Below are positions 22,833-41,022 of a stretch of 64,000 bases of DNA, piece after piece. The translations under genes and the position numbers were made by a program. The stretch is from Nitrospirota bacterium (GTDB taxonomy: Bacteria; Nitrospirota; Thermodesulfovibrionia; Thermodesulfovibrionales; Dissulfurispiraceae). Numbering within the stretch: position 1 is the stretch's first letter; each line of letters opens with the position of its first letter. Below the pieces are notes generated by a model that had not been told where the DNA came from, ran no database searches, and saw only the letters and a list, made by a program, of their open reading frames with translations. The DNA lies in assembly GCA_963790025.1 (NCBI GenBank), contig CAWBMP010000003.1, positions 192,001 to 256,000 on the forward strand, in the 5' to 3' direction.

Positions 22833-22865
22833 AAAAAGGCAGGCGGGACGTCCCGCCTGCCTTTT
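22833..22865. terminator. Intrinsic terminator (perfect 32-bp palindrome)
   Basis: aaaaggcaggcgggacgtcccgcctgcctttt. Confidence 0.85.
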
Positions 22866-23392
22866 GCGCTCATATCAACCTTGTGTTGCTAGTTGGAAGA
22901 GCTGATAGCTACTCCTGTTACTGCGCCGGTTGTCACCGGAACAGTGGCCGCCGGGTTTGCAAATGTATACCCCGACTTGGTCACCGTAATAGTATAGGTG
23001 CCTGGCACTACGTTTGTGAAGGTGAAGGCCCCACTGGCGTTGGTGCTGGTGATACCCTTGGTCACGCCACTGAGCTTAAGGGTAAGAGATGCTGCCGAAA
23101 GCGGGGTGCCAGCCAGGTTAGTCACTGTGCCGCTGACCGCGTATTTGGCCGGCACCGTTACCTTCTGGCTGGAGGTTGCGCTTATGCCCGAAACAGTAGC
23201 GGTGTCAACAATCGTAAAGGTGTTGTTTGTAGTATAGGTGTGGGTAAACACACCGCCTGCACTGCCTGTTGAAAGACCGGTGCCGTCACCCCAGTTGATG
23301 GATACCGAGGAACCTGAGGTTGAGCTGTCTGTCAGGGTAACGGTCGAGCCGGTTACACTGAGAGCAAAGTTGTCGGTGGGAGCGATGTTCAC
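22833..23392. repeat. ~560-bp direct repeat, copy 2
   Basis: Matches 20146-20705. Confidence 0.95.
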
Positions 23393-26389
23393 AGCCACCG
23401 TGCTGGTCTGGAAATCGTACATTTCATTAGTCGTGTCGTAAACCATCAGCTGAACAGTGTACTGATTGGAACCGACGGTTGGAGTGAACACATGCTGACC
23501 TGAAGTGCTGGTATTAAGGATGCTTGTGTTGTTGGCACCGCTTGCGGGATCACCGAAATTCCAGTCGTACACACAGTTGCCGCTAGGACAGGTCGCGGAA
23601 GAGGCATCGAAGTTTACTGTACCGGTCTTGTCCTGTGTCTGCTGCCAGGTGAATTGGGCTGCAGGAGTACCACTGTGCATGTTCCTTGCGTCTGCTGCCA
23701 GCTCAGTTTTGGATTTGTAAGGAGCATTATTGGTGACGTAATTGGATCCGAAGCTTCCGCCGTGGCACTGGCCGCAAGCCATATCAAGGTCGACCCAGAC
23801 AGCATTGTTATATAACACTGTGGCATCTTTCTTGAATTCCGGTGCGGTTTGTGCGTCTCTATCCATCAGGGTTCCGGCGGGCAAGGCACTCCATGTGCCG
23901 CTGTTCGCGGTACAATTGGCGGAACTGGTATCAGACTGGTACACAACAGGTAAACTCGGAGCATTCTGGACCGGACCGGCATGTACGCTGCACGTTCCGT
24001 TGTAGAACTGGCCCGTTGTCGGGAAGGTACTGTAAGTTGAACTTGAATTGATTCTCCATACATGGACCGGCATCGAATTCTGATTGCCGTTTGCCAAGGC
24101 CTGTGTAGCCATGTGGCAGACTTCGCACGAACCATTGGGATAGAGAGTGGTATCGAACGGAGTACCGGGAGTCTGAGGATGATTAAACGATGCTACCTGC
24201 GGTGTAGCAGTGTCGGTAGCGCCGGTCGAAGCATTGTTCACGTGGCAATCTGCACACGTTTTTCTGATGGCCGCCCCTGCCTGGCTGTCTACAAAGAGGC
24301 TGTTGTGAACATCATGACAGGTGGTGCATGTACCCTGGTAGCCGGACTGAGTTGTGGCTCCACCTACATCATCTCTCCAAGCGTAGCCTGATATGGCAGT
24401 ACATTGTGCCTGGGTTGTAATCGGCGAGCCGTTGCTCTGGGTCGTTGCCAGACTGCTGCTGGTGCTGCCCTGGAAGCAGGAGTAGCCTTTGAATATACTG
24501 TTATATTCTGCTGCCACGGCTGTGCCTGCAGAATCATAAAGATCATTTTCACCAAGGGGGTTCGGCGTAATGGAGCCGTTGCCGGTCTGTGCGCCGAGGT
24601 ATCTGGCATGAACGCTGTTCAGGAACGAGTTGCCGAGAACATGGCCGTTGAAGTCGCGGCCTGCTGCTGCCCCGTGGCTGACACCTGTCGGGATTATTGT
24701 CGGATCAAACTGTGATGTTCCGCTTGTTGAACCGCCCTCGGCTGGATACAACTTTGCGATACTCTGGTGGCAGCCGAAGCAGAGATTATTCCTGCCTACT
24801 CCATCAGCGAGATTGCCCATTCCACTACTTGTAGGATATGTTGAAGGGAAGGACGATGCGGCAATCTGAGCCGCAGTTACCGAAGGAACAGTTGCATTGT
24901 GACATCTTGAGCAGTTGATGCCTTCGAGGTCCCAAGCATAGCCGGCTTTAACAGCACTGGCATAACCTGCGCCGGCGGCAGTGGGCTGTTGCCCAACGTA
25001 TCCAGGGGTGCCGACTGACTGCACACCTGGTGTTGCGGCAGTGCCGCCACTAAAGCCGGTCGAATGGCAGTTTGCACAACTGTAATTGCTGCCTGCAATA
25101 GCAACGCTCGGAAGCGCAGCCATCCAGTCACCATAGATGTAATACATAGGATTCGAGCCGTCCAAAGCACTTCCGGCGGCCCCAAGAACTCCAAATGTCA
25201 TCGCATTTGTGCCGTCGGTAGTATAAACAACGCCGTTAGCACCTGCCCACGCGAGGCCGGGTGTGACCTTCCTCAGCATGTTTTTATGGCCGGTCTGAAG
25301 ATACGAATCTTTGTATCTGTTGAACGGGCCGTTATACTGCACTAAAGTGCTGTGGCAGTGGAGACAACCATTATCGCCATTTACAGCCTGCTGGGTGAGG
25401 TCAAAAACGACACCCTTGGTAATGGAGGTATCAACAAGCGTAACCTGATATCCCGGACCCATGGGAATCCAGTTGGACCAGGAGCCGCCATTTGCAAGAC
25501 ATGCTCCCTGGGTGGTAAGAGTGCTCAGATCAACAGTTGCGCCTGCTGCTGCGGTTACTCCGCCGATTACGGCAGTACTTCCAGTTACAGCCGTTAAGGC
25601 ACTGTTAAGCGGTCCGGCGACACCATAAGCATAAACGCAGTTGCCTGAGCTAACAGACCAACCAAATGATGTCGTGGCGTTGGTGCTTGTGGATGGGCAG
25701 GTCGATGAAGTGTAACCAGTCGCTCTCATACTTGTATAGCAGAAACCTGTGTTGGACGCTTGAGTGGTACCTTGCGCCCCAAAAGTCAGAGGATTTCCGC
25801 TGCCATCCTGTCCCCTGAACTGCCAGCCATAGGCTATACACATGGCCGAAGTGCCGTTAGCTTTATTGTTGACGCCCGTGGCATTGGCTAATACGCCCCC
25901 CAAGGCATTACACATTTGAGAGTCCCTGTCCAGGTTCTTCAAAGAAATGCCGGTTAGAATGTTCCCGCTTCCATCAATTGTCACGCAGGTGCTGCTGCCC
26001 GGTGCGGCATACTTGAGGCCTGATGTGTTGCTTCCTGTCTTTCCGCATACATTGGCCAAAGTGTCGTTGGAAGTGATCGCAGTCACGGAAACAAGCCTCG
26101 CATCGCAATCTCTCTTGGTGAGAATAGTAGGATCAGTAACCATATTGCCGCTAGCGTCTATGCTGAGAACGCATATGCCGTCACTGGGTGCTATCCAGTT
26201 GCTGAATGTAACACCACCAGTTGTCCCGTTAGCATTAGTAGCGGTAAGATGTATGCCGTCAGCGGCTACCACACCATTCTGAACCGCACCGTCACTTTGG
26301 TACATTGCCCCGGCATTTCCTATCATCATAAATGAAGAAATGACAAGGGCAACGATCGACATGAGAATCATCAAACGTTTTTGCTTCAT
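22889..26389 (-). CDS. Large secreted octaheme cytochrome c with Cys-rich N-terminal region, PKD and Ig-like tail
   Basis: Signal peptide; 8 CXXCH (CLHCH, CANCH, CSRCH, CFGCH, CTTCH, CADCH, CEVCH, CGQCH); paralogous to 20202..22763. Confidence 0.85.
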   Translation of the reverse strand: MKQKRLMILMSIVALVISSFMMIGNAGAMYQSDGAVQNGVVAADGIHLTATNANGTTGGVTFSNWIAPSDGICVLSIDASGNMVTDPTILTKRDCDARLVSVTAITSNDTLANVCGKTGSNTSGLKYAAPGSSTCVTIDGSGNILTGISLKNLDRDSQMCNALGGVLANATGVNNKANGTSAMCIAYGWQFRGQDGSGNPLTFGAQGTTQASNTGFCYTSMRATGYTSSTCPSTSTNATTSFGWSVSSGNCVYAYGVAGPLNSALTAVTGSTAVIGGVTAAAGATVDLSTLTTQGACLANGGSWSNWIPMGPGYQVTLVDTSITKGVVFDLTQQAVNGDNGCLHCHSTLVQYNGPFNRYKDSYLQTGHKNMLRKVTPGLAWAGANGVVYTTDGTNAMTFGVLGAAGSALDGSNPMYYIYGDWMAALPSVAIAGSNYSCANCHSTGFSGGTAATPGVQSVGTPGYVGQQPTAAGAGYASAVKAGYAWDLEGINCSRCHNATVPSVTAAQIAASSFPSTYPTSSGMGNLADGVGRNNLCFGCHQSIAKLYPAEGGSTSGTSQFDPTIIPTGVSHGAAAGRDFNGHVLGNSFLNSVHARYLGAQTGNGSITPNPLGENDLYDSAGTAVAAEYNSIFKGYSCFQGSTSSSLATTQSNGSPITTQAQCTAISGYAWRDDVGGATTQSGYQGTCTTCHDVHNSLFVDSQAGAAIRKTCADCHVNNASTGATDTATPQVASFNHPQTPGTPFDTTLYPNGSCEVCHMATQALANGNQNSMPVHVWRINSSSTYSTFPTTGQFYNGTCSVHAGPVQNAPSLPVVYQSDTSSANCTANSGTWSALPAGTLMDRDAQTAPEFKKDATVLYNNAVWVDLDMACGQCHGGSFGSNYVTNNAPYKSKTELAADARNMHSGTPAAQFTWQQTQDKTGTVNFDASSATCPSGNCVYDWNFGDPASGANNTSILNTSTSGQHVFTPTVGSNQYTVQLMVYDTTNEMYDFQTSTVAVNIAPTDNFALSVTGSTVTLTDSSTSGSSVSINWGDGTGLSTGSAGGVFTHTYTTNNTFTIVDTATVSGISATSSQKVTVPAKYAVSGTVTNLAGTPLSAASLTLKLSGVTKGITSTNASGAFTFTNVVPGTYTITVTKSGYTFANPAATVPVTTGAVTGVAISSSN

Positions 26390-26973: not shown

Positions 26974-26989
26974 TGGCACACAGCTTGCT
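26974..26989 (+). promoter_or_regulatory. Sigma-54 promoter for the OmcE-like gene
   Basis: TGGCAC-ACAGC-TTGCT, consensus -24/-12. Confidence 0.85.
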
Positions 26990-27155: not shown

Positions 27156-28010
27156 ATGAAGAAACAATTGGTTTTAGTGCTGGCACTGATGCTGGCGATG
27201 TTTTTGGTAGGTAATGCATATGGTTATACGCCCGGCGCAGGTATTAAGACAAGCCCGCATGACCTCAGTAAGGCAGGCGGCAGCATAGGCAAGCCCTACG
27301 GCGGGGCAACTGAACAGGCCGGCCTGGACAGAATTTGCGTGTACTGCCATGCCCCTCACCATACGATAAAGCCAAGCGATGCGTCAACTTTAGCTTATAG
27401 TTATGTGCCGCTATGGAACCATGATTTAACCACACAGACATTTACTATGTATACAAACAATTCTGGTAATGTCTCTGGTGATCCTACCCGCCAGGCTCCC
27501 GGCTCCGGCGGTCAGGTGAATAATCTTGCGGCTACTGCGGGGAGCCCCTCAACGCTTTGCCTCAGCTGCCACGATGGAACAGTAGCAACTGACGCATACG
27601 GCAACGGAGGCGGTCCCAGCAGTTCAGGCTACGGCAGCTACAACTGGTCGCCTTCCAAAAGTTCCGGCACCCAGTTCATCCAGAATAACGCATACCAGAT
27701 CGGCGCAGGCGGAGACCTTAGCAATCATCATCCCATCGGATTCGACTATATCAAAGCATACAATAACAGCCAGAGCAGCCAAAACGGAGATTACGCACTT
27801 GCGAACATCAGCACACCCATGGGAACCGGCAGGACAATAGGCCAGCTTCTGTGGAATGCAACATGGAATACTAATAGGACGACTCAGACGGGCGGCACTA
27901 TGGAGTGCACCACATGCCATTCCGTGCACAACAAGGCCAACACCGGCCAGAGACTCCTGTGGGTAGAAGACACAAACAGCGCCTTCTGTATGACCTGTCA
28001 CCTTAAATAA
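27156..28010 (+). CDS. omcE: OmcE-like tetraheme cytochrome c (candidate nanowire subunit)
   Basis: Signal peptide, then IKTSPHDLS / ICVYCHAPH / PLWNH / TFTMY / STLCLSCHDG / DLSNHHPIGF / MECTTCHSVH / SAFCMTCHLK. These are collinear with G. sulfurreducens OmcE motifs as I recall them (IKNTKHDLS / ICVFCHTPH / PLWNR / TFTLY / SLFCMSCHDG / DLSNDHPVNF / LECGSCHKVH / SKLCLGCHKK). Confidence 0.85.
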   Translation: MKKQLVLVLALMLAMFLVGNAYGYTPGAGIKTSPHDLSKAGGSIGKPYGGATEQAGLDRICVYCHAPHHTIKPSDASTLAYSYVPLWNHDLTTQTFTMYTNNSGNVSGDPTRQAPGSGGQVNNLAATAGSPSTLCLSCHDGTVATDAYGNGGGPSSSGYGSYNWSPSKSSGTQFIQNNAYQIGAGGDLSNHHPIGFDYIKAYNNSQSSQNGDYALANISTPMGTGRTIGQLLWNATWNTNRTTQTGGTMECTTCHSVHNKANTGQRLLWVEDTNSAFCMTCHLK

Positions 28011-28029
28011 GTTTCATCTCTATTCGTAC

Positions 28030-28065
28030 AAAAAGGGGGGGATGGTCAGCCATTCCCCCCTTTTT
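28030..28065 (+). terminator. Intrinsic terminator after the OmcE-like gene
   Basis: A-tract, G-run stem (gggggggatgg...ccattcccccc) and T-tract. Confidence 0.85.
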
Positions 28066-28078
28066 AATGGAAAAACAA

Positions 28079-28170
28079 AAGGAAGTATCTGAGTGTCTGA
28101 GCATCAAAGCAGGGTCTTCAAAAGTCTTTTACTTTAATGCTGTGACACTCTGATACTCTGACACTTCCTT
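28079..28170. repeat. Inverted-repeat element with 8-nt subrepeats
   Basis: aaggaagtatctgagtgtctgagcatcaaagca ... tgctgtgacactctgatactctgacacttcctt. Confidence 0.7.
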
Positions 28171-28266
28171 CTGGTGGTTAAATGATAAAACTGTCAGTTA
28201 TGTGGTATTCTAAAATTGTTTCTCCCTGCTATGGAAGAGAACGATATTACGTAAAGAGGTGTTGTA

Positions 28267-29454
28267 ATGAAAAAGCTGTTTATTTTCTGCACAGCATTTG
28301 TGTTTGCCGTGGCGGTCGGTTGCGCCATGCCCGAGAAAAAAGAGGAAACCAAGGTTTTCTACCCGGAACCTCCTGAATTGCCACGCATTCAGTTTCTCGC
28401 GTCGTTTACAGGGTCAAAGGACATTGAGCCCGAGAAGTCGGCCCTGGATGTCTTTCTGACCGGCAAGGAATCGGGCAGACTCCTGCAAAAGCCGTATGGA
28501 GTTGCCATTTACAATGGGAAGATGTATGTCTGCGACACAATGCAGGGCGTTATGATCTTCGATTTTCAGAAGAGGATGTTAAGGCCCCTGCAGGGCGACC
28601 GCGGGCCCGGCAAGCTGGTGCAGCCGATCAACATCAGCATAGACAGGGCCGGAAATAAATATGTGGCCGACCCTGCCCGCGGACAGGTGGTTGAATACGA
28701 TAAGGACGATTTCTACGTAAGGGCGATCGGGACGCCCGGCGGGTGGAGGCCGGTGGATGCCGCAGTATACGAGGACAGCGTTTATGTGGCCGATATAAAA
28801 AACGCCGAAATAAAGGTGTTTGACAGAGAGACCGGAGCTCCCGTCCGGCAGTTCGGCCAGACAGGAGAACCGAAAGACCGTCTGTCGCTGCCGGCCAACA
28901 TCGCATTTGACCCTGAAGGAGACCTCTATGTTTCGGACATAGGGAGATTTCAGATCGTAAAGTTCGACCGGGACGGCCATGTCAGGGGGACGTTCGGTGA
29001 GCTCGGCTCCGAAGCGGGGCACTTTGCCCGGCCCAAGGGAATCTCTGTCGACCGGAACGGCAATCTGTATGCGGTAGATTCCGCATTCGACGTGGTGCAG
29101 ATGTTCGATAAAGATGCGCATCTCCTGCTTTTCTTCGGCAAGGCTGGGACAGGTCCGGGCGACCTCCAGCTCCCCGCAAAGGTCACTGTGGATTACGACA
29201 ACGTAAAGTATTTTGCAAACTATGCAGACCCAAAGTTCGATATCCAACATATAATTATCGTGACGAACCAGATGGGCGACCGCATGGTCAATGTGTATGC
29301 TTTCGGCAAAGAGAAGGGGAAGAAATACCCCAGCAATGAGGAATTGGAAGCACAGGTAAAAGAGAAGTTCGACAAGCTCAGGAAAGAGCAAGAGGGAAAA
29401 AACAAAGGCAAGGCGGAGGAAGGAACAGACGAGGGCACAAAAAAGTCCGAATAA
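28267..29454 (+). CDS. NHL-repeat beta-propeller lipoprotein
   Basis: Lipobox AVGC; FYPEPPELPRIQFL; NHL units such as GHFARPKGISVDRNGNLYAVD. Confidence 0.9.
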   Translation: MKKLFIFCTAFVFAVAVGCAMPEKKEETKVFYPEPPELPRIQFLASFTGSKDIEPEKSALDVFLTGKESGRLLQKPYGVAIYNGKMYVCDTMQGVMIFDFQKRMLRPLQGDRGPGKLVQPINISIDRAGNKYVADPARGQVVEYDKDDFYVRAIGTPGGWRPVDAAVYEDSVYVADIKNAEIKVFDRETGAPVRQFGQTGEPKDRLSLPANIAFDPEGDLYVSDIGRFQIVKFDRDGHVRGTFGELGSEAGHFARPKGISVDRNGNLYAVDSAFDVVQMFDKDAHLLLFFGKAGTGPGDLQLPAKVTVDYDNVKYFANYADPKFDIQHIIIVTNQMGDRMVNVYAFGKEKGKKYPSNEELEAQVKEKFDKLRKEQEGKNKGKAEEGTDEGTKKSE

Positions 29455-29471
29455 CGGCAGTTTCAAGAACA

Positions 29472-30068
29472 ATGGCAATATGGACAAAAACGGTGTTGCT
29501 GCTCTTCCTTCTGCTCATTGCGGCGGGATGCTCCCGACAGCAAGTGTTGCCTGACCAGTCAGAAAACGTACCGAGCGCGACGAACGGACTATATCGCGTG
29601 TTGGGCTTTTTTATCGATGGATTGACACCGCCTGAAAAGGATAAAGACGCGGGGGGCAAAGTAAGCGCTGAAGCGCCGGGATCGAAGAAAGAGGCGCTAG
29701 GGTACAGGGAACATGGCCCCTATGCAGCTAACCTCTGCGGAGCTTGCCATGTACAGACCGGAAGCAATCAGCTTATTATGCCCGTTGAGGAGCTTTGCCA
29801 GAATTGCCACGTCTTGAATCTCAAAAAGAAAAAGGTCCACGGCCCGGTCGTGACAGGCGGGTGCAAAGTTTGCCATGATCCGCATGCCTCGCCGTACCGC
29901 TTTTTACTTGTGTCCGAATCGAAGGACTTTTGTTATTATTGCCACTCCCGGACGGATATCGAAAAAAGGGAGGTGCACAGGAAAACCGATGTTGGGTGTA
30001 CTTATTGTCACGAGGCCCACGCATCAGACAATGAATACTTGCTGCGAACAGAAGAGGTCGGGAAATGA
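29472..30068 (+). CDS. Pentaheme cytochrome c lipoprotein
   Basis: Lipobox IAAGC; LGFFIDG; CGACH, CQNCH, CKVCH, CYYCH, CTYCH; overlaps the start of the porin gene. Confidence 0.9.
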   Translation: MAIWTKTVLLLFLLLIAAGCSRQQVLPDQSENVPSATNGLYRVLGFFIDGLTPPEKDKDAGGKVSAEAPGSKKEALGYREHGPYAANLCGACHVQTGSNQLIMPVEELCQNCHVLNLKKKKVHGPVVTGGCKVCHDPHASPYRFLLVSESKDFCYYCHSRTDIEKREVHRKTDVGCTYCHEAHASDNEYLLRTEEVGK

Positions 30069-32101
30069 AGCGCATACTGTGGCTTTTCTTTCTGACTGCG
30101 GCAGCGGTTGCGTCCCCCTCCGTTGCCATGTGCGACATGCAGCAGTTCATACCGAGGATCATAGATTACAGCGGGGAGTTCGACATCTATATGCTGCGTC
30201 AGGCAAACGACAATAAAACGACAAGTGCAAGGACATCGACAGTCGATACTTCCGCCATCGAACAGTTCAGGCTTTCTTCGGCCGGGTATATATACCACCC
30301 GGCATTAATAACGTTTCTCGCGAGCGGATCTTTTGGCCTGCTCCAGGACCAGTTCAAAAACAACGGTACTGCGGCTCCCTGGAGCAACACCGATGCCAAC
30401 GAGTATAACCTGACGCTTCATGTTCTCCCTGAAAAACAGTATTCCCTCGACCTGCTCACCTCGCGTTCGGAGCCTTTTGCGAGTACAGGAGCATTCACCA
30501 ATATTCGGCCGGTCACTTACGTCAACAGTGCGACTTTTTACTATCGTGGAAGTCCCATAAACTTTTCCACCGGCTACACCGATACCAGGACCGTATCTGA
30601 CACAACGACAGACTCACGCTTGCTCAACTTTCAGGCCCAACATGGCGTGCAGCACAGCTTCACTTCTGTCGGATATAGCCGCAGCGACAGCACATCCAGT
30701 GCGGGGACCGATTATTCCAGGGACTATTATCTCCTGTCTAATCAGCTGCAGTTCGAGCGGCTGCTCCTGCGCAGCGAGCTCAAGTATGATGACTATAATA
30801 ACAAAGACCTTTTTCAAACCACTGACGGCACCGACAACTCATGGACCGAATATCTGCACCTGAAACTTCCCTGGCGTTTCGAATCGGACCTCACTTACAG
30901 CCGGACATACAGCGATTCAAAGTCCGTGCCCATCGCCAACTCCGCTGCTTCGGCGCCGCAGAAGCAGTCCAATACGAACGATTCGCTCAATGAGGTTTTA
31001 TCGCATCGCCTCGGTGAGAGCCTGTTCACATCATACGCGTACAATGACACTACCAACAAATCTTCGGGTGGACAGTCCGACAACAATAGCAATTCGGTGA
31101 GTGTCTTATACACGAAAAAGATCCCCTGGGGAACATTTACAGCAGGGACCGGCTACACCGTTATGAAGACAGACAATATCGGGTCTGTCATTACGCTGAA
31201 CGAGGTACATACGTCAAAGGCCGATGGAATAGATTCCTTCACCCTGCAGCCCGGCTTGATCGACCCTGCTACGATCGTTGTAGATCTCGTCGCACCCGGG
31301 ACCGGGATCATCTATCCGTTGGTCAATAACGTAAATTACCTGATCGACCATATCGGCAATACGTTCAGGATCACGGTCCAGTCGTTCTTTCTCTTCCCTG
31401 TCCCCGGGTTTACCCCCAATCCGGACATCAATTTTGCATACACCTATAATGTGACCTATAGAAGCACGCAGGGGACATTCGGCCTCCAGACAAACACCAT
31501 CGCCTACAACGCCGGTCTTGCGCTCTTCGCGAACCTTCTCAACCCATATTATAGCCATCAGCAGTCTGACCAGACCTTGGTGTCGGGTTTTTTTCCGGGA
31601 GAGTTATCGAGCTTTACAGTGGACACGGAGGGCATCGTGGTCCAGAAAGCGCCTTTCAGGCTTTCGACAGAATACCAGAAGTATGACTCCGCAAGCAACC
31701 CGAGCAGGACCTGGAGGTCGCGGTTCGACTTCTGGGAGAACATGATGCGCTCGCTGTCCCTTTCGGCAGGGGTTTTCTATAACAAGAGCAACTTTTTGCA
31801 GAGCCAGTCCGGTGCCGGACTGACAAGCCCTTATTCCCAAACAGTGCGCGGGGTGAATGTCTCTGTACAGAAAATATTCCCATGGAACCTGAACCTATCG
31901 GGATCAGGCTATTTTGCGCAAACGACCGGACGCACCGAGTCAAACAACTATTCACTGAACGGGGTGCTAACATGGCGGGTGGGCAGGCTGTCTGTTGATT
32001 TGCAGACGACATATCAACTCGTTGATTCGGTAATTAGTGGTGCAAAACAAACGACTGCCTCAACCATGTACCTGCTCAGGATACGAAGACAGTTGTTTTA
32101 G
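30065..32101 (+). CDS. Large outer-membrane beta-barrel (porin-cytochrome conduit type)
   Basis: Signal peptide, amphipathic Ser/Thr/Tyr-rich strands, GYIYHP near the N-terminus, internal beta-sandwich-like insert, C-terminal YLLRIRRQLF. Confidence 0.8.
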   Translation: MKRILWLFFLTAAAVASPSVAMCDMQQFIPRIIDYSGEFDIYMLRQANDNKTTSARTSTVDTSAIEQFRLSSAGYIYHPALITFLASGSFGLLQDQFKNNGTAAPWSNTDANEYNLTLHVLPEKQYSLDLLTSRSEPFASTGAFTNIRPVTYVNSATFYYRGSPINFSTGYTDTRTVSDTTTDSRLLNFQAQHGVQHSFTSVGYSRSDSTSSAGTDYSRDYYLLSNQLQFERLLLRSELKYDDYNNKDLFQTTDGTDNSWTEYLHLKLPWRFESDLTYSRTYSDSKSVPIANSAASAPQKQSNTNDSLNEVLSHRLGESLFTSYAYNDTTNKSSGGQSDNNSNSVSVLYTKKIPWGTFTAGTGYTVMKTDNIGSVITLNEVHTSKADGIDSFTLQPGLIDPATIVVDLVAPGTGIIYPLVNNVNYLIDHIGNTFRITVQSFFLFPVPGFTPNPDINFAYTYNVTYRSTQGTFGLQTNTIAYNAGLALFANLLNPYYSHQQSDQTLVSGFFPGELSSFTVDTEGIVVQKAPFRLSTEYQKYDSASNPSRTWRSRFDFWENMMRSLSLSAGVFYNKSNFLQSQSGAGLTSPYSQTVRGVNVSVQKIFPWNLNLSGSGYFAQTTGRTESNNYSLNGVLTWRVGRLSVDLQTTYQLVDSVISGAKQTTASTMYLLRIRRQLF

Positions 32102-32153
32102 CGGGTAAACTGCTTCATTTTGTTGGAAGTTTAAATTAAGGAGGAGGAAAAAT

Positions 32154-33209
32154 ATGAGAGCGGTAATTTTGGCGGTTGCACTGGTGCTGTGGGCTTTATC
32201 GGCGCTCGCGGGCATCACGTTTGCGGAAGAAAAAGAGGTGAAGCCGGAGACGCCTGCGGCTGCGGGGGAAAAGAAACAGCCGGTCAGGCTGTCTCAGGAG
32301 GAAGCCGGAAAGATTGTTGCAGCCAGGGTCAACGGAGTCGACATTATGCTCGATTCGGTGATGGCGATGGCGGCCCAGCTCAGCTCACAACTGCCGGCTG
32401 GTCACGGACCTCACGGTCCCGGCCAGGGGCCTGATATTGAAACAGTTCAGAAAGAGGCGCTCAACAGGCTCATATTGCAGGAACTGGCATATCAAAAGGC
32501 AAAGACAGAGGGTATCCAGGTGGAACAGAGCGCCATCGATGAAGTTTTTATGACGATCAAAGAGAAATCAGGCGGTGCAGATGCATTCAAACAGATCATG
32601 GCAAATGAAAAGCTGACAGAAGATGCGCTCAGGGGGCAGATTGCAAGGAACCTTGCGATCGAACGCATTTATGCCAGAGAGATACGGGATAAGAACTTCA
32701 GCGTGCCGCAAGACAAAATGAAAGAAGAATACGAGAAAAACAAGGCCCAGTTCATTCAGCGGGAAAAGATCAGCCTTGTCGACGTCGTTCTTTTCCTGGA
32801 TGTTGCAGACAAGGGGTCTGCCGCAAAGGCGGAAGAGGTCCTTAAAAAAATAAGTGAAAATAATAATGACCCTACGAAATTGGTCCAGGACGGCACCTTT
32901 GCCGTGAGGGACTATGAGCCGAAGAAAGACAGGGACAAGGAGCTGATCGAGGCGGCAAGAAAGCTGAAACCGGGCGACATTTCTGGTATTATAACTACTG
33001 GCGACAGCATGCACATAATAAAGCTGATCGATTATAAGCCCGAAAAACAACTTTCGTATGAGGAAGTGAAGTCTCTTATAGAGCGCAAGCTTGCCGCGGA
33101 TGAGCAGAACCGGAGGGCAAAGGAATGGTTCGAGGGACTGAAGAAGGATGCGAAGATAGAGGTGCTGGTTCATCCGGCAGACGAAAAGAAAGCCGGGCAG
33201 ACGAAATAG
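32154..33209 (+). CDS. SurA/PpiC-type periplasmic chaperone (peptidyl-prolyl isomerase family)
   Basis: IVAARVNGVDI, ALNRLILQELAYQKAK, LKPGDISGIITTGDSMHIIKL, WFEGLKKDAKIE. Confidence 0.85.
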   Translation: MRAVILAVALVLWALSALAGITFAEEKEVKPETPAAAGEKKQPVRLSQEEAGKIVAARVNGVDIMLDSVMAMAAQLSSQLPAGHGPHGPGQGPDIETVQKEALNRLILQELAYQKAKTEGIQVEQSAIDEVFMTIKEKSGGADAFKQIMANEKLTEDALRGQIARNLAIERIYAREIRDKNFSVPQDKMKEEYEKNKAQFIQREKISLVDVVLFLDVADKGSAAKAEEVLKKISENNNDPTKLVQDGTFAVRDYEPKKDRDKELIEAARKLKPGDISGIITTGDSMHIIKLIDYKPEKQLSYEEVKSLIERKLAADEQNRRAKEWFEGLKKDAKIEVLVHPADEKKAGQTK

Positions 33210-33239
33210 TATAAACGCAATACGGAGAATACTGACCGG

Positions 33240-34274
33240 ATGACGAAAATAGGAAAAAAGGGTCCTCTCATACTACTTTTTCTGGCCTTTTTAGCTACGG
33301 CAGGGTGTGCCTCTTCCAAATGGGCGCTCGACAGCCAGGTTTCTGAGAAGCAGCTCTACTGGATGGAGGCGCCAGGGGTGGGAAAGGTCAAGCACTTTAT
33401 GTCCATAAAGGGGTTCGGAGAGACGAACTCTTCGATCCGGACATTTCTCTTCGGCACTGGAAAAAGCGTGCTGGAGCGTCCTGTCGCCTTTGCCTCGGCC
33501 AGTGACGGCAGATTTGCCATTGCCGACGCAGGCGCCCGCTGCGTACATTATTATGTCCCGGCTGAGCAGCGGTATTTGAAGCTGTCGACGCTGGGACAAG
33601 CGGACATTGCTTCTCCAGTGGGTGTTGCGTTCGACGACGAGCTCAGATTGTATATAGCCGATTCTGCACTGGGGAATATCTTCGTTGTCGACAAAAACGG
33701 GGCCTATGTTTCTTCGATTTCCACTGCACTCGGCGTACCGTTGAAACGGCCCACAGGCCTGGCCTTCGATGTCGACAATAAGCTGCTTTACGCAGTAGAC
33801 ACTCTTGCCAACGCGGTCTATGCATTCGATAAAAAAGGCGTGGCCGTATCTTCTTTCGGCCACAGAGGGGACAAGGAGGGAGAGTTTAATTTCCCGACGC
33901 ATCTGTTCTGGTCTCCCGCTGACCTGCTGTATGTCACCGACTCCATGAACTTCAGGATACAGGTGTTCACAACTGCCGGCAAGCTGGTGGCTACCTTCGG
34001 GCACCACGGCGATGGCTCAGGTGATTTTGCCTCTCCGAAAGGGGTGGCTGTCGACAGGAAAGGAGTGATCTATGTCGCTGATATGCTCTTCGATAATATC
34101 CAGTTGTTCGATGAAAGAGGTACTTTCCTTTTGACCCTCGGCAGTCAGGGTATTGAAGAGGGCGAGTTCTGGCTCCCTTCCGGGCTGTATATGGATGATC
34201 ATGAAACATTGTATGTTTGCGACACCTTTAACGCAAGGGTGCAGGTCTTCAAGATCATGGAGGAATTGCCATGA
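33240..34274 (+). CDS. Second NHL-repeat beta-propeller lipoprotein
   Basis: Lipobox TAGC; GEFNFPTH, GDFASPKGVAVD, GEFWLPSGL, DTFNARVQVF. Confidence 0.9.
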   Translation: MTKIGKKGPLILLFLAFLATAGCASSKWALDSQVSEKQLYWMEAPGVGKVKHFMSIKGFGETNSSIRTFLFGTGKSVLERPVAFASASDGRFAIADAGARCVHYYVPAEQRYLKLSTLGQADIASPVGVAFDDELRLYIADSALGNIFVVDKNGAYVSSISTALGVPLKRPTGLAFDVDNKLLYAVDTLANAVYAFDKKGVAVSSFGHRGDKEGEFNFPTHLFWSPADLLYVTDSMNFRIQVFTTAGKLVATFGHHGDGSGDFASPKGVAVDRKGVIYVADMLFDNIQLFDERGTFLLTLGSQGIEEGEFWLPSGLYMDDHETLYVCDTFNARVQVFKIMEELP

Positions 34275-36070
34275 GTACTGATATGGCCGAAGTATTTGAA
34301 ACGCGCAAAAGCCGGCAAGCCGGCATAGCTGCAGGCTTTATCACCCTGTCTCTGTGTTTACTGCTATTGTCCCCCGCTTATGGAGCCAGGCCGAGCATTA
34401 TAAGCACCAAACACAACCTTTCCGTATCAGGTCCCGGCGAGATTAAGGCGCTTACCGAGACGCGCATATGCGTGTTCTGCCATACGCCGCATAATGCCGC
34501 CCCAAAGACGCCGCTTTGGAACAAGGCCATTCAGCCGGTGACTTATGTATTATATGAGAGCGCAACGCTCCGCGCAAAGCTGAAGCAGCCCTTTGGCCCT
34601 ACACGGCTCTGCCTGAGCTGCCACGACGGGACTGTGGCATTGGGCGCGGTCTTGCAGCCTTCCGGGTCAATAGCGATGACATCGGCAACTATTCCCACTG
34701 GAAGGGCCTCGTATATCGGGACATATCTGAGGGGAGATCATCCGGTGGCTTTTTCCTATTACGATTCCCTCAGCAACGCGGAAATCAATCCCAGACTGCC
34801 GTCGTCCCTCGTGTTCTATTACGGCGGCACCGTCCACTGCACGACCTGCCACGATCCTCATGAAGACAGGTACAAGTCTCCCGACAAAACGGGGTTTCTT
34901 ACCGGTAAGTTCCTGCTTGTGAACAACAGATACACTGCCTTGTGCACAATGTGCCACACAAAAAATGGGTGGAGTGCCGGCACCCACGCATTATCAGGCG
35001 CCCAGATAAACGGGGTGCTGCCGGTTGCGCCCAGAAAATGGCCTGCCTGGATGACTGTGGGCGAGTGGGGGTGTGAGGGCTGCCACGTATCGCATAGCGG
35101 CGGCAGCCAGCAATGGCTTCTTTATAATGCCCGGGAAGAGGACAACTGCTATGCATGCCACAAGGGGAATGTGGCCAAAAAGAACATTTATGCGCAGTTC
35201 CAAAAAAGCTCACACCACGCGGTCGAGTATGCGGCCGACGTCCATAGCCCTGTAGAATCTCCGCTTATGATTACCAACCATGTCGAGTGCGACGACTGCC
35301 ATAATCCTCATTCGGTATCGGGCGCCACGGCGAGCGCGCCCTATATCTCCGGACGGCTCACCTGGGTCAGCGGCGTGGATCTTAACGGCGCAGCGGTGAC
35401 TCCGGCTTCATATGAATATCAGATATGCTTTAAATGCCACGCGGATTCTACTCCGTCCATTCTGTTTTCTCCGGGGTACCCCATTCCGCGGGCCATCAGT
35501 ACAACAAACCTGAGAACAAAGTTTAATACCATCAACCCGTCATACCACCCGGTTGAGGGGATAGGCAAGGTCATGAGCGTCCCGAGCATCCCCAGTCCTT
35601 ATACTCCGACGCTTACCGCGACGAGCTCAATTTATTGCACTGATTGTCATGACAGTGACGAAAGCAGTTCGGCAGGTGGATCGGGCCCAAGGGGGCCTCA
35701 CGGCTCGGTCTATCCGCCGATTCTCTTGATGCAGTATACAACGTATGACAATACTATAGAGAGTTTTCAGAATTATGCGCTGTGCTACCGCTGCCACAAC
35801 AGGGACACGGTCCTCTCAAGCCGGAGCTTCAAGAAGCACCAGACGCATGTTATAAACGACCAGGCGCCCTGCTCGGTCTGCCATGACCCTCACGGCGTGC
35901 CGTCTGACGCAGGGGTGACCGGCAGCCATACGCATCTTATCAATTTTAATACCAGCATTGCCAGGCCTGTTTCGGGCCAGGTCTATCCCCTTTATACGGA
36001 CAATGGAAATGGGACAGGCAGTTGCACCCTTATCTGCCACGGCATGACGCATGTGAACCTGTCGTATTGA
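34271..36070 (+). CDS. Multiheme cytochrome c (11 CXXCH plus CX3CH) with N-terminal OmcE-like module
   Basis: SIISTKHNLS / ICVFCHTPHNA / PLWNK / LCLSCHDG / DHPVAF / HCTTCHDPH / LCTMCH, followed by 8 more heme motifs. Confidence 0.9.
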   Translation: MSTDMAEVFETRKSRQAGIAAGFITLSLCLLLLSPAYGARPSIISTKHNLSVSGPGEIKALTETRICVFCHTPHNAAPKTPLWNKAIQPVTYVLYESATLRAKLKQPFGPTRLCLSCHDGTVALGAVLQPSGSIAMTSATIPTGRASYIGTYLRGDHPVAFSYYDSLSNAEINPRLPSSLVFYYGGTVHCTTCHDPHEDRYKSPDKTGFLTGKFLLVNNRYTALCTMCHTKNGWSAGTHALSGAQINGVLPVAPRKWPAWMTVGEWGCEGCHVSHSGGSQQWLLYNAREEDNCYACHKGNVAKKNIYAQFQKSSHHAVEYAADVHSPVESPLMITNHVECDDCHNPHSVSGATASAPYISGRLTWVSGVDLNGAAVTPASYEYQICFKCHADSTPSILFSPGYPIPRAISTTNLRTKFNTINPSYHPVEGIGKVMSVPSIPSPYTPTLTATSSIYCTDCHDSDESSSAGGSGPRGPHGSVYPPILLMQYTTYDNTIESFQNYALCYRCHNRDTVLSSRSFKKHQTHVINDQAPCSVCHDPHGVPSDAGVTGSHTHLINFNTSIARPVSGQVYPLYTDNGNGTGSCTLICHGMTHVNLSY

Positions 36071-36125
36071 AGATTAGATGGAACTGTTTGCCGAATACTT
36101 GCACACATTAAACAAAGGAGTCATT

Positions 36126-36866
36126 ATGAAAAAATCTTTGGTAGTTTTTGCCGCATTGTCTTTTATCGTATTGCCGTTTGCGGGCAGGAGCGCATACGCC
36201 ACTTCTGACGGCGCTTCGGCAGCGCAGCCCGCATCACAACCTTCACAGCCGCAGAGACAGGAGGACTCCTCCCTTTCCGGCAAAGTAGTAGAAACCATGA
36301 CCAGCGGCGGTTACACATACGCCCTTATTGAGAAGAACGGCAAAAAAACCTGGGTGGCAGTGCCTGCAACAAAAATATCGGTCGGTCAGCAGGTATCGTT
36401 CAGGCCGGGAGTGGCCATGGGTAATTTTGAGAGCAAGACGCTTAATCGCAAGTTCGACAACATAATTTTTTCTACGGGGCTGCTTGGCCAGGCGCCTATG
36501 GCCCATGGCACTGAAATTTCTTCGGACAAGCAGACTGCCGGGACCGCTACCGCTAAAAAAATAAAGATAGAGAAGGCCCAGGGGCCGAATGCTTACACTA
36601 TAAATCAGCTCGTCAAAGACAGTGCCAGACTTGACAAGCATCCGGTAATCGTCAGGGGGGAGGTAGTCAAGGTTTCCCAGAAAATAATGGGAAAAAACTG
36701 GGTCCATATAGTTGACAACAGCGCCACGGACCATCTTGTTGTCACCTCGCAGGATTTGCCCAAGGTGGGAGATGTCGTTACCGTAAGCGGCACTCTTCAT
36801 AGAGATAAGGATTTTGGCAGCGGCTATAAGTATGCGGTGATCATCGAAGATGCGTCGATTAAATAG
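36126..36866 (+). CDS. Periplasmic tandem OB-fold protein (NrfJ-like)
   Basis: Start MKKSLVV after AAGGAG; LSGKVVETMTSGGYTY...WVAVP, IMGKNWVHI, DKDFGSGYKY. Confidence 0.65.
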   Translation: MKKSLVVFAALSFIVLPFAGRSAYATSDGASAAQPASQPSQPQRQEDSSLSGKVVETMTSGGYTYALIEKNGKKTWVAVPATKISVGQQVSFRPGVAMGNFESKTLNRKFDNIIFSTGLLGQAPMAHGTEISSDKQTAGTATAKKIKIEKAQGPNAYTINQLVKDSARLDKHPVIVRGEVVKVSQKIMGKNWVHIVDNSATDHLVVTSQDLPKVGDVVTVSGTLHRDKDFGSGYKYAVIIEDASIK

Positions 36867-36873: not shown

Positions 36874-37662
36874 CTAAAACTGTTTCATGGCAGGATGACA
36901 TCGTACACAATCGTCCAGGGGAAAGGCGACTCTGAGATGGCAAACTCCACAAGACTCCCCCCTGATCATGTAACTCATCCGCAGGCTTTCAGTCGTCTTT
37001 TTCTTTATGTTGAAAAGATCGGGATGGCAGCTGGAACAATCGAGCCATAACTCGTGTGTCTTATGGGGGAAGATCGCGGAAGATATACCGCTCATCTCTG
37101 CCTGAAGCGTAAGGGTCTTGATGTTGACCAGCTCCTTTTTTCTGTCTGAAAGGCTGTCGGCCGGTTTTATGACGCCATCTTCCAGGGCCCTGGACCAGTT
37201 AATCTCATTGCCGTATTTAGCGGGGGGCAGCGTTTTCTGGAGTGCCCTGAATTTTGTCCATTCAGAGCTTGCATTGAACCCATGGCAACCGGTGCAATTT
37301 ATACCGGTCGCATCTTTTGGAGCAAAAGAAATCTTTCCGTTATGGCAGGTTACGCAGTACTTACCGCCCATCCGTCCGTTGTCGCAGACGATAGGGGTCT
37401 CTTTGGCCCTCATCGAGAACTCAAGCTCATAATGGCAGACCCTGCAGGTATATTTGATCCTGTGTATCCAGTGAGGAAATCTAACGGCCCCCAGGTTTTC
37501 GGCAGCAGAGGCCCCACCCATAAAAATATCGCCATAAGTTTCAGGAGACGGCATTGGGGGGAGTCCAAACATACTCTGCCCAAAGGAGCTACCCGATTGG
37601 GCGCACAATAGTTGCACAGGAAGGACGATAACTGCTAATACGAGGAAAAGAGATTGCTTCAT
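36874..37662 (-). CDS. Hexaheme cytochrome with two c7-type triheme domains
   Basis: FPHWIH..CRVCH, CVTCH, CTGCH; FPHKTH..CSSCH, CGVCH, CVRCH. Confidence 0.9.
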   Translation of the reverse strand: MKQSLFLVLAVIVLPVQLLCAQSGSSFGQSMFGLPPMPSPETYGDIFMGGASAAENLGAVRFPHWIHRIKYTCRVCHYELEFSMRAKETPIVCDNGRMGGKYCVTCHNGKISFAPKDATGINCTGCHGFNASSEWTKFRALQKTLPPAKYGNEINWSRALEDGVIKPADSLSDRKKELVNIKTLTLQAEMSGISSAIFPHKTHELWLDCSSCHPDLFNIKKKTTESLRMSYMIRGESCGVCHLRVAFPLDDCVRCHPAMKQF

Positions 37663-37724
37663 CTTTAATAATTATACATGATTTTGCAGATATGTGTTGT
37701 CCCCACTTTAGGCTCACGCCCTGC

Positions 37725-38366
37725 TTACTTTGGAACGAATACGCCATGCCTGTCGAGTATCTTCCTGAACTCCGTATTCTTCCGGATATTGTTTAGATCG
37801 GGATCCGTGCGCAGATAATCGTAATCTTTGAAACCAAGCACAAGGGCCTTGTCAAGGTATTCGAGGGCGGGCGCGGACTGCTTCTGAAGGGCATAGAGTG
37901 CAGCAGTATTATAGTACGTAATCGGGTTGTGGGGATTAATTGCCAAAGCCTTGTTAAGGTCATCCTTCGCCTTGTCGAACTTGTTCTGCCGTATGTATGC
38001 CGCGGCCCTGTCGTTATAAGCCATAACGTACTGCGGATATTGTGCGATTGCTTCAGTGAATTCCCTGATTGCAATATCGTACTCGTGAGAACGCACATGT
38101 CCTATCCCATTCTGCACATTCCGCAGCGCCTCCTGCGGAATCGCCTCCGGTACATTGCTCCCCTTCTCCGCCGGTGCGGACGGCCGTGCAAGTGAGGAAG
38201 GGGCAGGTACTTTCGGTTGAGTTTTATTGCATCCTGACGAAAGAAACGCGGACTCCAGAAGTGCAGCAGTGACAAGCATAACGGTTGCCGCGTTACGTAT
38301 TCCAAGCATGTATTGCTCCTCCTTGCATATTGTTTTTCGGGAACGCGCATCCATCGCTATCTTCAT
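37725..38366 (-). CDS. TPR-repeat (lipo)protein
   Basis: LSSGC possible lipobox; TPR units; LGFKDYDYLRTDPDLNNIR C-terminal cap. Confidence 0.8.
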   Translation of the reverse strand: MKIAMDARSRKTICKEEQYMLGIRNAATVMLVTAALLESAFLSSGCNKTQPKVPAPSSLARPSAPAEKGSNVPEAIPQEALRNVQNGIGHVRSHEYDIAIREFTEAIAQYPQYVMAYNDRAAAYIRQNKFDKAKDDLNKALAINPHNPITYYNTAALYALQKQSAPALEYLDKALVLGFKDYDYLRTDPDLNNIRKNTEFRKILDRHGVFVPK

Positions 38367-38683
38367 GGCTTGTCCTTCGATTCAAGCACAAACTTGTAAA
38401 GGGAGCGGCAGTTCTCCAGCCTTTTCAGATATACCTTTTTTGTAATTTCGTCCTGCTTTTCGATAACCGGCCTCAACCTGTCACACCTTTCCACCAACTG
38501 TGTCAACTGTTCCTTTGTCATGTCCATAGCGTCATCGGTCTGTGAGCATACGGCCTCAAATTCCTTCAGCCATGCATCTTCCGGGCGGGCAATACCGGGA
38601 CACAGCAAGGCAGCCGTCAGACTTATGGCCAGCAATATGAGACCGATTGTCCAGGCTGCCTCACTATCCTTCGCTGCCTTCAT
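38363..38683 (-). CDS. Small secreted Cys-containing helical protein
   Basis: Signal-like segment; WLKEFEAVCSQT, LVERCDRL, LENCRSLY; ATGA-coupled to both neighbours. Confidence 0.7.
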   Translation of the reverse strand: MKAAKDSEAAWTIGLILLAISLTAALLCPGIARPEDAWLKEFEAVCSQTDDAMDMTKEQLTQLVERCDRLRPVIEKQDEITKKVYLKRLENCRSLYKFVLESKDKP

Positions 38684-39519
38684 CTCTTCACTCCTTGTTC
38701 GGGTTGCTGTTCAGACGTTTCTTCAACTGGTTTTGAATGGCATCTCTGACAATCAAGCAATGGAAAAGCGACCTTCCCATGGCATACGCCACAGTATTTG
38801 CCCTCAAATATCTCCGGCATGGAGTACTTGGTCAACCCTTTTTTAACTCCTGCGAATATCTCCGGATGGCACAATTCACAACCGTTCCAGACAATATGTT
38901 TCTTGTGTGAAAAAATGATCTGAGGCATGCCCTGGACCTTGGGGTCGAGGGAAAAATCTTTCTGGATTTTGAGCGGCGGTCTCTTCACTGATATTCCCGG
39001 CAGAAAACCAATTGGTTTGATTAACCCATCAGCTTCAGCTTTTTCCCAGTTTATACCGTTACCGAACCGTTCCTTAGGCAGGTTCTCGGCAAACTTGTTG
39101 AAGTCGTATTCTTTTTTTACGTCTTTGCCCAGGGAATGGCATCTCTCACACCTGTTGATATCTTTATGACCATATTCCTTTGAACATGCCTCGAAGACCT
39201 TCCTGTCCCGCCACTGCATTCTCCCATTATGGCAAGAGCCGCAATAATAGCCTTTCATGTTGTCTTCTGCCCTGATGCCTGTTTCACCGGCCTTCATCGC
39301 AAACGCGATGTCAACATGGCAGAGCCTGCAGGTGAAATTGGACCTGTGAAGCCAGTGGTCAAATACTACAGGGGCCAGATAGGCCTTGACCGAGTAGTTG
39401 TTTATTACCACTCTTCCGTATTCGTAAGGCAAGGGTCTTCTTTTCTTGACGCCTGACTGGGCCAATGCCAGTCCAACAAAAACCAGGCTAAGCACAATCA
39501 TAAAGAACAATTTCTTCAT
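38680..39519 (-). CDS. Hexaheme cytochrome with two c7-type triheme domains (paralog of 36874..37662)
   Basis: FDHWLH..CRLCH, CGSCH, CERCH; FSHKKH..CELCH, CGVCH, CQRCH. Confidence 0.9.
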   Translation of the reverse strand: MKKLFFMIVLSLVFVGLALAQSGVKKRRPLPYEYGRVVINNYSVKAYLAPVVFDHWLHRSNFTCRLCHVDIAFAMKAGETGIRAEDNMKGYYCGSCHNGRMQWRDRKVFEACSKEYGHKDINRCERCHSLGKDVKKEYDFNKFAENLPKERFGNGINWEKAEADGLIKPIGFLPGISVKRPPLKIQKDFSLDPKVQGMPQIIFSHKKHIVWNGCELCHPEIFAGVKKGLTKYSMPEIFEGKYCGVCHGKVAFPLLDCQRCHSKPVEETSEQQPEQGVKR

Positions 39520-39645: not shown

Positions 39646-41022
39646 TTATTCGAGGCTGAATTTCTTGATTTGATAACGAAGACTATCGTAGCTGACGCCC
39701 AGCAATTTTGCTGCCGCTGTCTTGTTCCCGCTTGTCTTCTTCAGTGCCTGGCTGGTAAGGTTTTTCTCCAGTTCTTCAAGGTCTATGCCTTTATCGGGAA
39801 GCACGAATTCTTCGGAAAAGGCCGCAGCAGGATTTGGCTGCTGGATTATCTCTTTGGGGAGATGCTCCGGCAATATCACATCCGTGCTCTCAAGCACGAC
39901 AATTCGTTCTATAGTATTCCTGAGTTCCCGCACATTCCCGGGCCACCGGTAAGAAACCATGAGTCTTTCCGTTTCCGGGGAAAAACCCGATAACATTGTT
40001 TTGTTGTACTTTGCAGAAAGACGGGAGAGATAATATCTGGCCAGCAGAAGTATGTCCTCCCCTCTGTCCCTCAGTGAAGGCAAATGCATCGAAAAAGCGT
40101 TCAATCTGTAAAAAAGGTCCAGTCGAAATTCTCCCCGATCGACAGCGTCCTGAAGGTCCTTGTTGGTCGTCGATATAATGACGACATCGATCGGGAGTTC
40201 GTCCTTGCCGCCGACACGGCGTACCGATCTTTCCTCGATGACTCTCAGCAATTTGCTCTGGAGGGAAATTTTCATCTCTCCTATTTCATCTAACAGTATC
40301 GATCCTCCGTCAGCAGTCTCGAAAAGGCCTTTTTTGTCCGTTACAGCATTCGTAAAGGCCCCCTTCTCGGAACCAAAGAGCTCGGCTTCGAGGAGAGTTT
40401 CGGGCAAAGCTGCGCAATTGACGCGTACAAAAGGTGAATAAGCTTCATTGCTGTGCATCTGGCGATGAATATACCGTGCAACGAGTTCCTTGCCCGTACC
40501 GCTCTCTCCGGTGATCAGAATAGTCGGTACATGTGCCTCTATGAGCTTCCCTGCCTTTGCCTTCAATTCCTGCATACATGTCGAATTGCCGATTATCTCT
40601 TTTTCGAACAGTTCGTGATTGACCTTTCTAAGGTAATTGACCTCGTGCCTGAGCCTGATTTTATCCATAGTGTTGCCGATTACGATTTTCACCTCATCCA
40701 TACTGAAGGGTTTGGTGATATAGTCGGCAGCACCCAGTTTCATCGCCTTGACAGCGGTTTCGGCTGTTTCGTCTGCCGTGAGCATCACGACCTCGGCAGA
40801 TAGCTTCGCTTTCACTTCCTGGAGCATATCTATTCCGTTCAGTCCAGGCATATTGATATCGAGCATAATAATATCCGGGACGCGGGAGCTTATTTGGGCC
40901 ATCACATCCCTGGAACCCGTGTCGGAATAGACTTCATATCCGTCTCCCTTAAGCGCCCTCGACAGCATCATGACAATGAGTTCATCATCATCTACAAGAA
41001 AAATCTTTCCCTTCCTCTTCAT
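39646..41022 (-). CDS. Sigma-54-dependent response regulator (NtrC family: REC-AAA-HTH)
   Basis: LVDDD, GESGTGKE, NCAAL, ELFGSEKGAFTNA, LLDEIGEM, WPGNVREL, C-terminal Fis-type HTH. Confidence 0.95.
   Translation of the reverse strand: MKRKGKIFLVDDDELIVMMLSRALKGDGYEVYSDTGSRDVMAQISSRVPDIIMLDINMPGLNGIDMLQEVKAKLSAEVVMLTADETAETAVKAMKLGAADYITKPFSMDEVKIVIGNTMDKIRLRHEVNYLRKVNHELFEKEIIGNSTCMQELKAKAGKLIEAHVPTILITGESGTGKELVARYIHRQMHSNEAYSPFVRVNCAALPETLLEAELFGSEKGAFTNAVTDKKGLFETADGGSILLDEIGEMKISLQSKLLRVIEERSVRRVGGKDELPIDVVIISTTNKDLQDAVDRGEFRLDLFYRLNAFSMHLPSLRDRGEDILLLARYYLSRLSAKYNKTMLSGFSPETERLMVSYRWPGNVRELRNTIERIVVLESTDVILPEHLPKEIIQQPNPAAAFSEEFVLPDKGIDLEELEKNLTSQALKKTSGNKTAAAKLLGVSYDSLRYQIKKFSLE

Follow-up and report, generated by a model that had tools for sequence, protein, structure and literature searches.

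The 64,000-nucleotide (nt) stretch analyzed here (the window; positions 192,001 to 256,000 of contig CAWBMP010000003.1, assembly GCA_963790025.1) comes from a Nitrospirota bacterium. At 27156-36866 it carries eight co-directional genes, the first of which, open reading frame 1 (ORF1), encodes an OmcE-family tetraheme cytochrome (E), the putative subunit of an extracellular filament. We consider it highly probable that the locus is the Thermodesulfovibrionia copy of the omcE cytochrome-nanowire/porin cluster of Geobacter and Desulfuromonas. This cluster, comprising a barrel, two β-propeller lipoproteins and two multiheme cytochromes, was defined by Petersen et al. (bioRxiv 2025, mBio 2026), who found cluster-bearing homologues in five phyla, Nitrospirota among them. 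The locus, presented in the initial annotation as an undescribed system, is thus one more Nitrospirota example of a published one. The system is real, well conserved and already described. The new lead may be its 12-heme cytochrome (C12) as an adapter, which bears on the question of how cells hold cytochrome nanowires in place and supply them with electrons.

All eight annotated ORFs are present on the plus strand at the expected positions. Downstream of ORF1, they encode an NHL lipoprotein (N1), a pentaheme cytochrome (C5), a putative barrel (BB), a peptidyl-prolyl isomerase (PPIase; PPI), a second NHL lipoprotein (N2), C12 and a 262-amino-acid (aa) protein (O8). The two β-propeller lipoproteins and two multiheme cytochromes by which Petersen et al. 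recognize the cluster are both present here.

The ORF1 product is a 284-aa protein with four CXXCH motifs that align, in conserved order, to the four motifs of G. sulfurreducens OmcE (7tfs_A). A phmmer search against all PDB chains retrieved 7tfs_A (E-value 1.3e-13, residues 16-284 versus 14-232) and 9yuq_N (1.5e-8), and the family profile (A1, 17 members) matched the same chains at 1.7e-47 (6-246 versus 6-232) and 4.5e-38, respectively. With OmcS the profile matched over only ca. 38 positions (3.4e-4), and ORF1 is not a hexaheme subunit of the OmcS family, the kind that belongs to the osc/OmcS cluster. Judged by its sequence, ORF1 is a member of the OmcE family, as initially proposed, and an OmcE fold is predicted for it since it is homologous to OmcE. 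A word-indexed search placed 1076 proteins in this family at E ≤ 1e-3.

Four further His of ORF1, H35 (PHDLS), H68 (APH), H192 (NHHP) and H258 (SVH), each align to a His of 7tfs_A. In a 17-sequence alignment the invariant columns comprise H35, C61xxCH65, P67-H68, PLWN85-88, C135xxCH139, H192-P193, C251xxCH255, H258 and C278xxCH282, so that the four heme motifs and four extra His that had been annotated hold up, all eight ligand His being invariant. The Ser/Gly/Asn-rich loops were also correctly seen as insertions, both relative to 7TFS and relative to most homologues. Seven N-X-S/T sequons (positions 101, 105, 163, 203, 217, 234 and 240) lie within these inserted loops. Putative glycans are reported on G. 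sulfurreducens OmcE (Petersen et al.); no glycosyltransferase block was found within the 64-kb window.

The expectation of a non-Geobacter host was borne out. Among homologues of ORF1, the closest one, at 76% identity, carries the label Dissulfurispiraceae, and the best named matches of the window TsaD are Nitrospirota metagenome-assembled genomes (75-83%) and Dissulfurispira thermophila (72%). By these protein comparisons, the host is a member of the Nitrospirota, class Thermodesulfovibrionia.

Conservation of the cluster was analyzed in a sample obtained by scanning one genome per species with the E profile; out of 580 confirmed stretches, the best 80 loci were used. Their labels were Desulfobacterota, Acidobacteriota, Nitrospirota, Binatia, Gammaproteobacteria, Verrucomicrobia, Gemmatimonadota, Bacteroidota, Calditrichota, Planctomycetota, Campylobacterota and others. 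The window proteins were scored against the ORFs of these loci, with an iterated hidden Markov model (HMM) used for BB. Short E was present in 76 of the 80 loci, N1 in 59, BB in 55, N2 in 52, C5 in 43 and long C12 in 41. An N1 homologue adjoined the E gene in 59 loci, and a conserved gene of 650-700 aa, the putative barrel gene, was present in 55. All six core genes were found together in 28 loci. Of the 34 loci that span 18 kb or more, 21 have the full set and 13 are without one or more of the six. The order E, NHL1, 5-heme, barrel, (PPIase), NHL2, 12-heme is conserved across many phyla, and the predicted co-occurrence of the accessory genes with omcE homologues is thereby confirmed.

Two relatives (G012 and G032) have a gene order identical to that of the window, PPIase included, while in a third (G009) the cluster is cut by a contig end. 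The PPIase gene, which occupies the same position in G012 and G032, was found in 9/80 loci and is a lineage-variable extra. The O8 family was found in 5/80 loci, never adjacent, and not in the two syntenic relatives, so the annotated membership of this putative OB-fold (oligonucleotide/oligosaccharide-binding) protein in the cluster does not stand. Out of the 41 nearest genomes, 16 had a match to E and 11 to BB. The G006 genome, of the same genus, carries two lone subunit paralogues (loci L095 and L096; 52-53% identity), with no machinery within 9 kb; one of them adjoins a giant cytochrome, and the same contig has, ca. 10-16 kb away, a barrel gene and a 12-heme homologue of 757 aa.

C12 is a 599-aa protein with eleven CXXCH motifs and one CXXXCH, in which residues ca. 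38-231 make up an OmcE-like tetraheme N-domain. Residues 25-163 matched 7TFS at E 4e-23 and residues 31-231 matched 9YUQ at 3.5e-18; the OmcE match is stronger for this domain (4e-23) than for ORF1 (1.3e-13). The same pattern was seen in a Geomonas locus (5.3e-24 for the C12 N-domain versus 1.3e-14 for the subunit). The OmcE hallmarks (N-terminal H-N-L-S, four CXXCH, PLWN, CLSCHDG and DHP) show at least 90% conservation across 42 C12 sequences, which come from many phyla and include some from Geobacter-lineage loci; 33 aligned sequences share 24 invariant His for 12 hemes. In a maximum-likelihood tree of 118 sequences, from which one long-branch fragment was left out, 42 C12 N-domains and three short sequences fell on one side of a branch with an ultrafast bootstrap (UFBoot) of 96 and an SH-aLRT of 98. 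On this phylogeny, the C12 N-domain is an old paralogue clade of OmcE.

At E ≤ 1e-30 the C12 family numbers 2888 representatives, and the majority of the best 150 span the full fused length. Some relatives have the protein split into two genes, with an OmcE-like tetraheme ORF immediately 5' of an octaheme ORF in G013, G025, G029, G035 (twice), G037 and G040, while octaheme-only ORFs in G023, G026, G028 and G038 stand in other arrangements. In the relatives, as in loci L098, L099 and L054, the split tetraheme is ca. 230-275 aa and the octaheme ca. 370-445 aa long; the former ends a few residues past its fourth heme motif, and the latter has its own N-terminal leader. Linker 230-266 of the fused protein aligns to neither gene. 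This linker contains the invariant H239, a possible "ninth histidine" for an anchor.

Among the components of the 28 full loci, C12 shows the highest conservation (median identity 46% at 91% coverage), compared with 44% over 71% for E and 25% for BB. This is in keeping with the slower evolution of cytochromes inside porin complexes than of exposed ones (PMC12977616). A PDB sequence search with the C12 C-domain gave nothing. Foldseek with the AlphaFold 2 model of C12 retrieved 7TFS (E 8.5e-4) and MtrA (E 0.059), and the modelled protein as a whole fits a resemblance to MtrA. Nanowire anchoring has been called "still speculative" in a review (PMC12307469), and the mBio 2026 paper sought an OmcE-like "anchor" or tip with more exposed hemes and reported none in omcE operons. 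Because it is the best-conserved component, has the N-domain of a likely old OmcE paralogue and occurs in split form in relatives, C12 is a candidate for this missing anchor. In the accessible parts of the omcE-cluster literature the C12 N-domain is not described as OmcE-like, no search having been aimed at C12 itself; published texts or supplements may describe C12 already.

The sequence TGGCAC-N5-TTGC, which we take to be the σ54 promoter consensus, has a single perfect match in the 64-kb window (mean of 0.12 in shuffles), and this match lies in front of ORF1. Sites with one mismatch numbered eight versus five expected, and no further promoter of this type was found in the cluster. Region 28005-28270, which includes a terminator-like hairpin, has a minimum free energy of −87.4 kcal/mol (z −5.9), and 0/200 shuffles folded equally well. 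ORF1 is followed by a 256-nt gap, and the following seven genes are spaced by −4 to 52 nt. The annotated operon needs correction here, as the hairpin and gap after ORF1 point to at least two transcription units. In our reading, the subunit gene would be expressed on its own and at a high level, ahead of a machinery unit of seven genes. Candidate regulators are encoded downstream of the cluster: a σ54 activator gene (39646-41022; Sigma54_activat E 4.7e-63) and a kinase gene (HATPase_c, PAS and HisKA domains). We infer that they act on the promoter at 26974.

The following scheme can be proposed. The tetraheme would be exported by Sec and would polymerize outside the cell through the His-to-neighbour-heme bond of solved OmcE filaments. 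The 678-aa BB protein would serve as the pore in the outer membrane, assembly would be aided by the two NHL lipoproteins and the SurA-like PPIase, and the 5-heme lipoprotein, a displaced 13-heme cytochrome and c7-type hexahemes would deliver periplasmic electrons. The σ54 promoter would drive the subunit gene, and the strong terminator would set the excess of the subunit over the machinery products. Tentatively, with somewhat less than an even chance of being right, we place C12 as an adapter, an MtrA-like linear heme wire in the barrel with its N-module docked on the cell-proximal end of the filament. Docking would use the same homotypic interface: the outer end of C12, an ancient OmcE paralogue, would nucleate or cap the filament via the same His-heme contacts, and C12 would both anchor and feed the wire. 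The split tetraheme and octaheme genes of some Thermodesulfovibrionales would then represent the two modules before or after fusion. If the adapter idea is true, cytochrome nanowires are polymeric extensions of a porin-cytochrome conduit. Since C12 occurs in Geobacter-lineage loci too, the idea is open to direct test in tractable Geobacter.

The same C12 could instead be the distal tip of the wire, incorporated first and making eight additional hemes available to minerals or partner cells, which we regard as unlikely. Its gene stands last in the unit as conserved, as tip adhesin genes do in chaperone-usher operons, and an OmcE-like module could cap either end. It is also a tip with more exposed hemes that the mBio paper asks for. 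As exposed cytochromes evolve fastest (PMC12977616), the strong conservation of C12 argues against a tip, as does the likeness of the whole protein to MtrA, a porin-inserted wire, and the split forms have the octaheme as its own gene beside barrel and propeller genes. We therefore favour the adapter at the filament base over the tip, because C12 is conserved like porin-complex cytochromes and resembles MtrA overall.

There may also be no wire. The barrel, 5-heme, 12-heme and tetraheme proteins could assemble into a compact complex across the outer membrane, comparable to MtrCAB or Geobacter Pcc, with the tetraheme as a surface-bound monomer or small oligomer; it might serve electron uptake as well as export. 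The MtrA-like model of C12 and the context of a barrel with a lipoprotein cytochrome are compatible with such a conduit; comparable NHL and cytochrome clusters of D. ferrophilus have been read as an outer-membrane electron-uptake complex (PMC5815863), and Petersen et al. remark that OmcE-like tetrahemes, widespread as they are, do not all have to form wires. The count of His does not separate monomer from polymer. Yet 7TFS and 9YUQ (the D. soudanensis OmcE bundle, PMC13712944), the two members in such a gene context that have been studied by experiment, both form filaments. The subunit gene comes with a promoter of its own and a strong terminator, an arrangement to be expected if its product is made in large excess, and the invariant residues include the N-terminal His by which subunits are bridged in solved wires (PMC12307469). 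A conduit of this kind consequently seems to us improbable, about as much so as the tip. Far less probable still is a purely periplasmic electron carrier in a coincidental neighbourhood: the tetraheme does have only a Sec signal, with no evident secretion motif, but dozens of loci in many phyla repeat this gene order, and the protein has two extracellular filament proteins among its homologues.

Several observations weigh against the nanowire and adapter readings that we prefer. The long loop insertions of ORF1 could alter the polymer interface, and its eight conserved His suit a monomeric bis-His tetraheme equally well as a polymer. The cluster is patchy, only 3/10 genomes of the genus having a match to E or BB, and full-length C12 was found at E ≤ 1e-100 in 21/201 genomes of the phylum sample. 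The C12 model has a mean pLDDT (predicted local distance difference test) of 68.9 and a pTM (predicted template modelling score) of 0.67, with the N-domain mostly at 40-68. Finally, the physiological need for OmcE in Geobacter is disputed (PMC13194489).

Compared with known systems, the locus is closest to the omcE cluster of Desulfuromonadia (7TFS; D. soudanensis WTL, 9YUQ), with which it shares the parts list, the heme motifs and the distal His; homologues of N1, C5, BB, N2 and C12 are present in Geobacter-lineage loci L047, L073, L079 and L081. It differs in its Nitrospirota host, in the SurA-like PPIase between barrel and NHL2, in having the subunit gene first (last in L079 and L081), in having no glycosylation gene block, in a subunit 52 aa longer with Ser/Gly/Asn-rich loops and in a 13-heme partner displaced by 9.4 kb. 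The osc (OmcS companion) cluster of G. sulfurreducens resembles it in helper classes by description: OscH is reported as a folding factor, OscE, F and G as secretion components and OscC as an OmcS-like paralogue within the operon, the factors named for this cluster being for folding, secretion and morphology (PMC13194489); the filament subunit there is of another family. A porin-mounted model for the osc/OmcS system is cited by Petersen et al. Unlike in MtrCAB of Shewanella (PDB 6R2Q), the barrel here has no Pfam match at E ≤ 0.01, C12 combines 12 hemes with an OmcE module, and the unit has no MtrC-type partner. Chaperone-usher pili, an analogy raised by Petersen et al., likewise place the major subunit gene at the front, followed by a terminator of its own, and combine periplasmic helpers and an outer-membrane barrel with a minor protein that resembles the subunit, but there is no homology, and the subunit bond here would be His-heme coordination rather than donor-strand exchange.

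Table 1. Features of the cluster and its surroundings, in window coordinates.
Feature	Position	Strand	Evidence or remark
13-heme secreted cytochrome (W450)	16399..17751	+	13 CXXCH
Two giant multiheme cytochromes (853, 1166 aa), PKD / CarboxypepD_reg ends	20202..26389	-	Pfam; divergent from ORF1
σ54-type promoter consensus TGGCAC-N5-TTGC	26974..26988	+	168 nt 5' of ORF1 start
OmcE-family tetraheme (E), putative filament subunit	27156..28010	+	phmmer and profile versus 7tfs_A; Sec signal peptide
Intrinsic-terminator-like hairpin 3' of subunit gene	28030..28065	+	16-bp G+C-rich stem, U tract
NHL β-propeller lipoprotein 1 (N1)	28267..29454	+	Pfam NHL E 4e-11; lipobox-like signal end
Pentaheme lipoprotein cytochrome (C5)	29472..30068	+	5 CXXCH; Paired_CXXCH_1 E 3e-24
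Putative outer-membrane β-barrel (BB), 678 aa	30065..32101	+	Homologue features, iterated HMM
SurA-like parvulin PPIase/chaperone (PPI), predicted periplasmic	32154..33209	+	SurA_N_3 E 5e-12; Rotamase_2 E 2e-16
NHL β-propeller lipoprotein 2 (N2)	33240..34274	+	Pfam NHL E 6e-24; lipobox-like signal end
Dodecaheme cytochrome (C12), candidate anchor/adapter	34271..36070	+	OmcE-like N-domain and octaheme C-domain
262-aa secreted protein (O8), last gene of unit	36078..36866	+	Atlas neighbours, RPA14
Two hexaheme c7-type cytochromes flanking a tetratricopeptide repeat (TPR) protein	36874-37662, 38680-39519 (36874..39519)	-	TIGR04257
σ54 response regulator and PAS/HAMP histidine kinase, candidate regulators	39646..43220	-	Pfam

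The signal peptides of N1 and N2 end in ...VGC and ...AGC, respectively, and that of the 198-aa C5, which has exactly ten His, in ...AAGC. BB had no Pfam (E ≤ 0.01), NCBIfam or PDB sequence match, a profile search against PDB likewise gave nothing, and its β-amphipathic-moment score was not separated from those of controls or shuffles. C-terminal Phe is present in 34/39 BB homologues, 2/39 match Porin_4, and the nearest named Atlas neighbours are porin clusters (0.85-0.89), from which we infer an outer-membrane β-barrel. O8 had no Pfam or NCBIfam match; it matched the OB-fold subunit RPA14 weakly (E 0.04), and its Atlas neighbours are named "NrfJ family protein" (0.96).

The block had also been described as self-contained, which cannot be maintained. 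W450 homologues (E ≤ 1e-50) adjoin the cluster in 31/80 loci, and here the gene lies 9.4 kb upstream, so part of the system lies outside 27156-36866; the regulators and giant cytochromes also flank the block. Homologues of the giant cytochromes, which have 7+1 and 8 heme motifs, lie directly 5' of E in L015, L017, L018, L020, L021, L022, L093 and L095. The two are probably paralogues, and an identical 15-mer, TGGCACTACGTTTGT, occurs at 20316-20330 and 23003-23017, on the opposite strand, in the 3' (C-terminal) part of both genes. The hexahemes on the other side of the block match NCBIfam TIGR04257 (nanowire_3heme) at 6.5e-30 and 6.5e-31, have six CXXCH each and are likely periplasmic carriers.

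Further genes lie at greater distances. System II cytochrome c maturation genes (ResB and CcsA-type; 46022-48559) and tsaD (45017-45952) are found ca. 9 kb downstream of the cluster; the omcE cluster of Desulfuromonadia is reported to be inserted beside resB/ccsB and a tRNA-modification gene (Petersen et al.). The tsaD ORF (minus strand) encodes 311 aa from a TTG start, compared with mostly 333 aa in homologues and 280 aa in the database entry, and its start is uncertain. Downstream of the 13-heme gene, 17751-19150 encodes a protein of 194 aa, which contains a hydrophobic segment and matched no family, and a 7-heme cytochrome; homologues of both occur in only a few loci (L016, L024, L025 and L095). 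A complete type II secretion-like set (GspD, M, PilN/PilM-like, K, pseudopilins, F, E ATPase and G) occupies 2562-13293 of the window, 14 kb upstream of the cytochrome island. In Shewanella, type II systems are known to secrete surface cytochromes.

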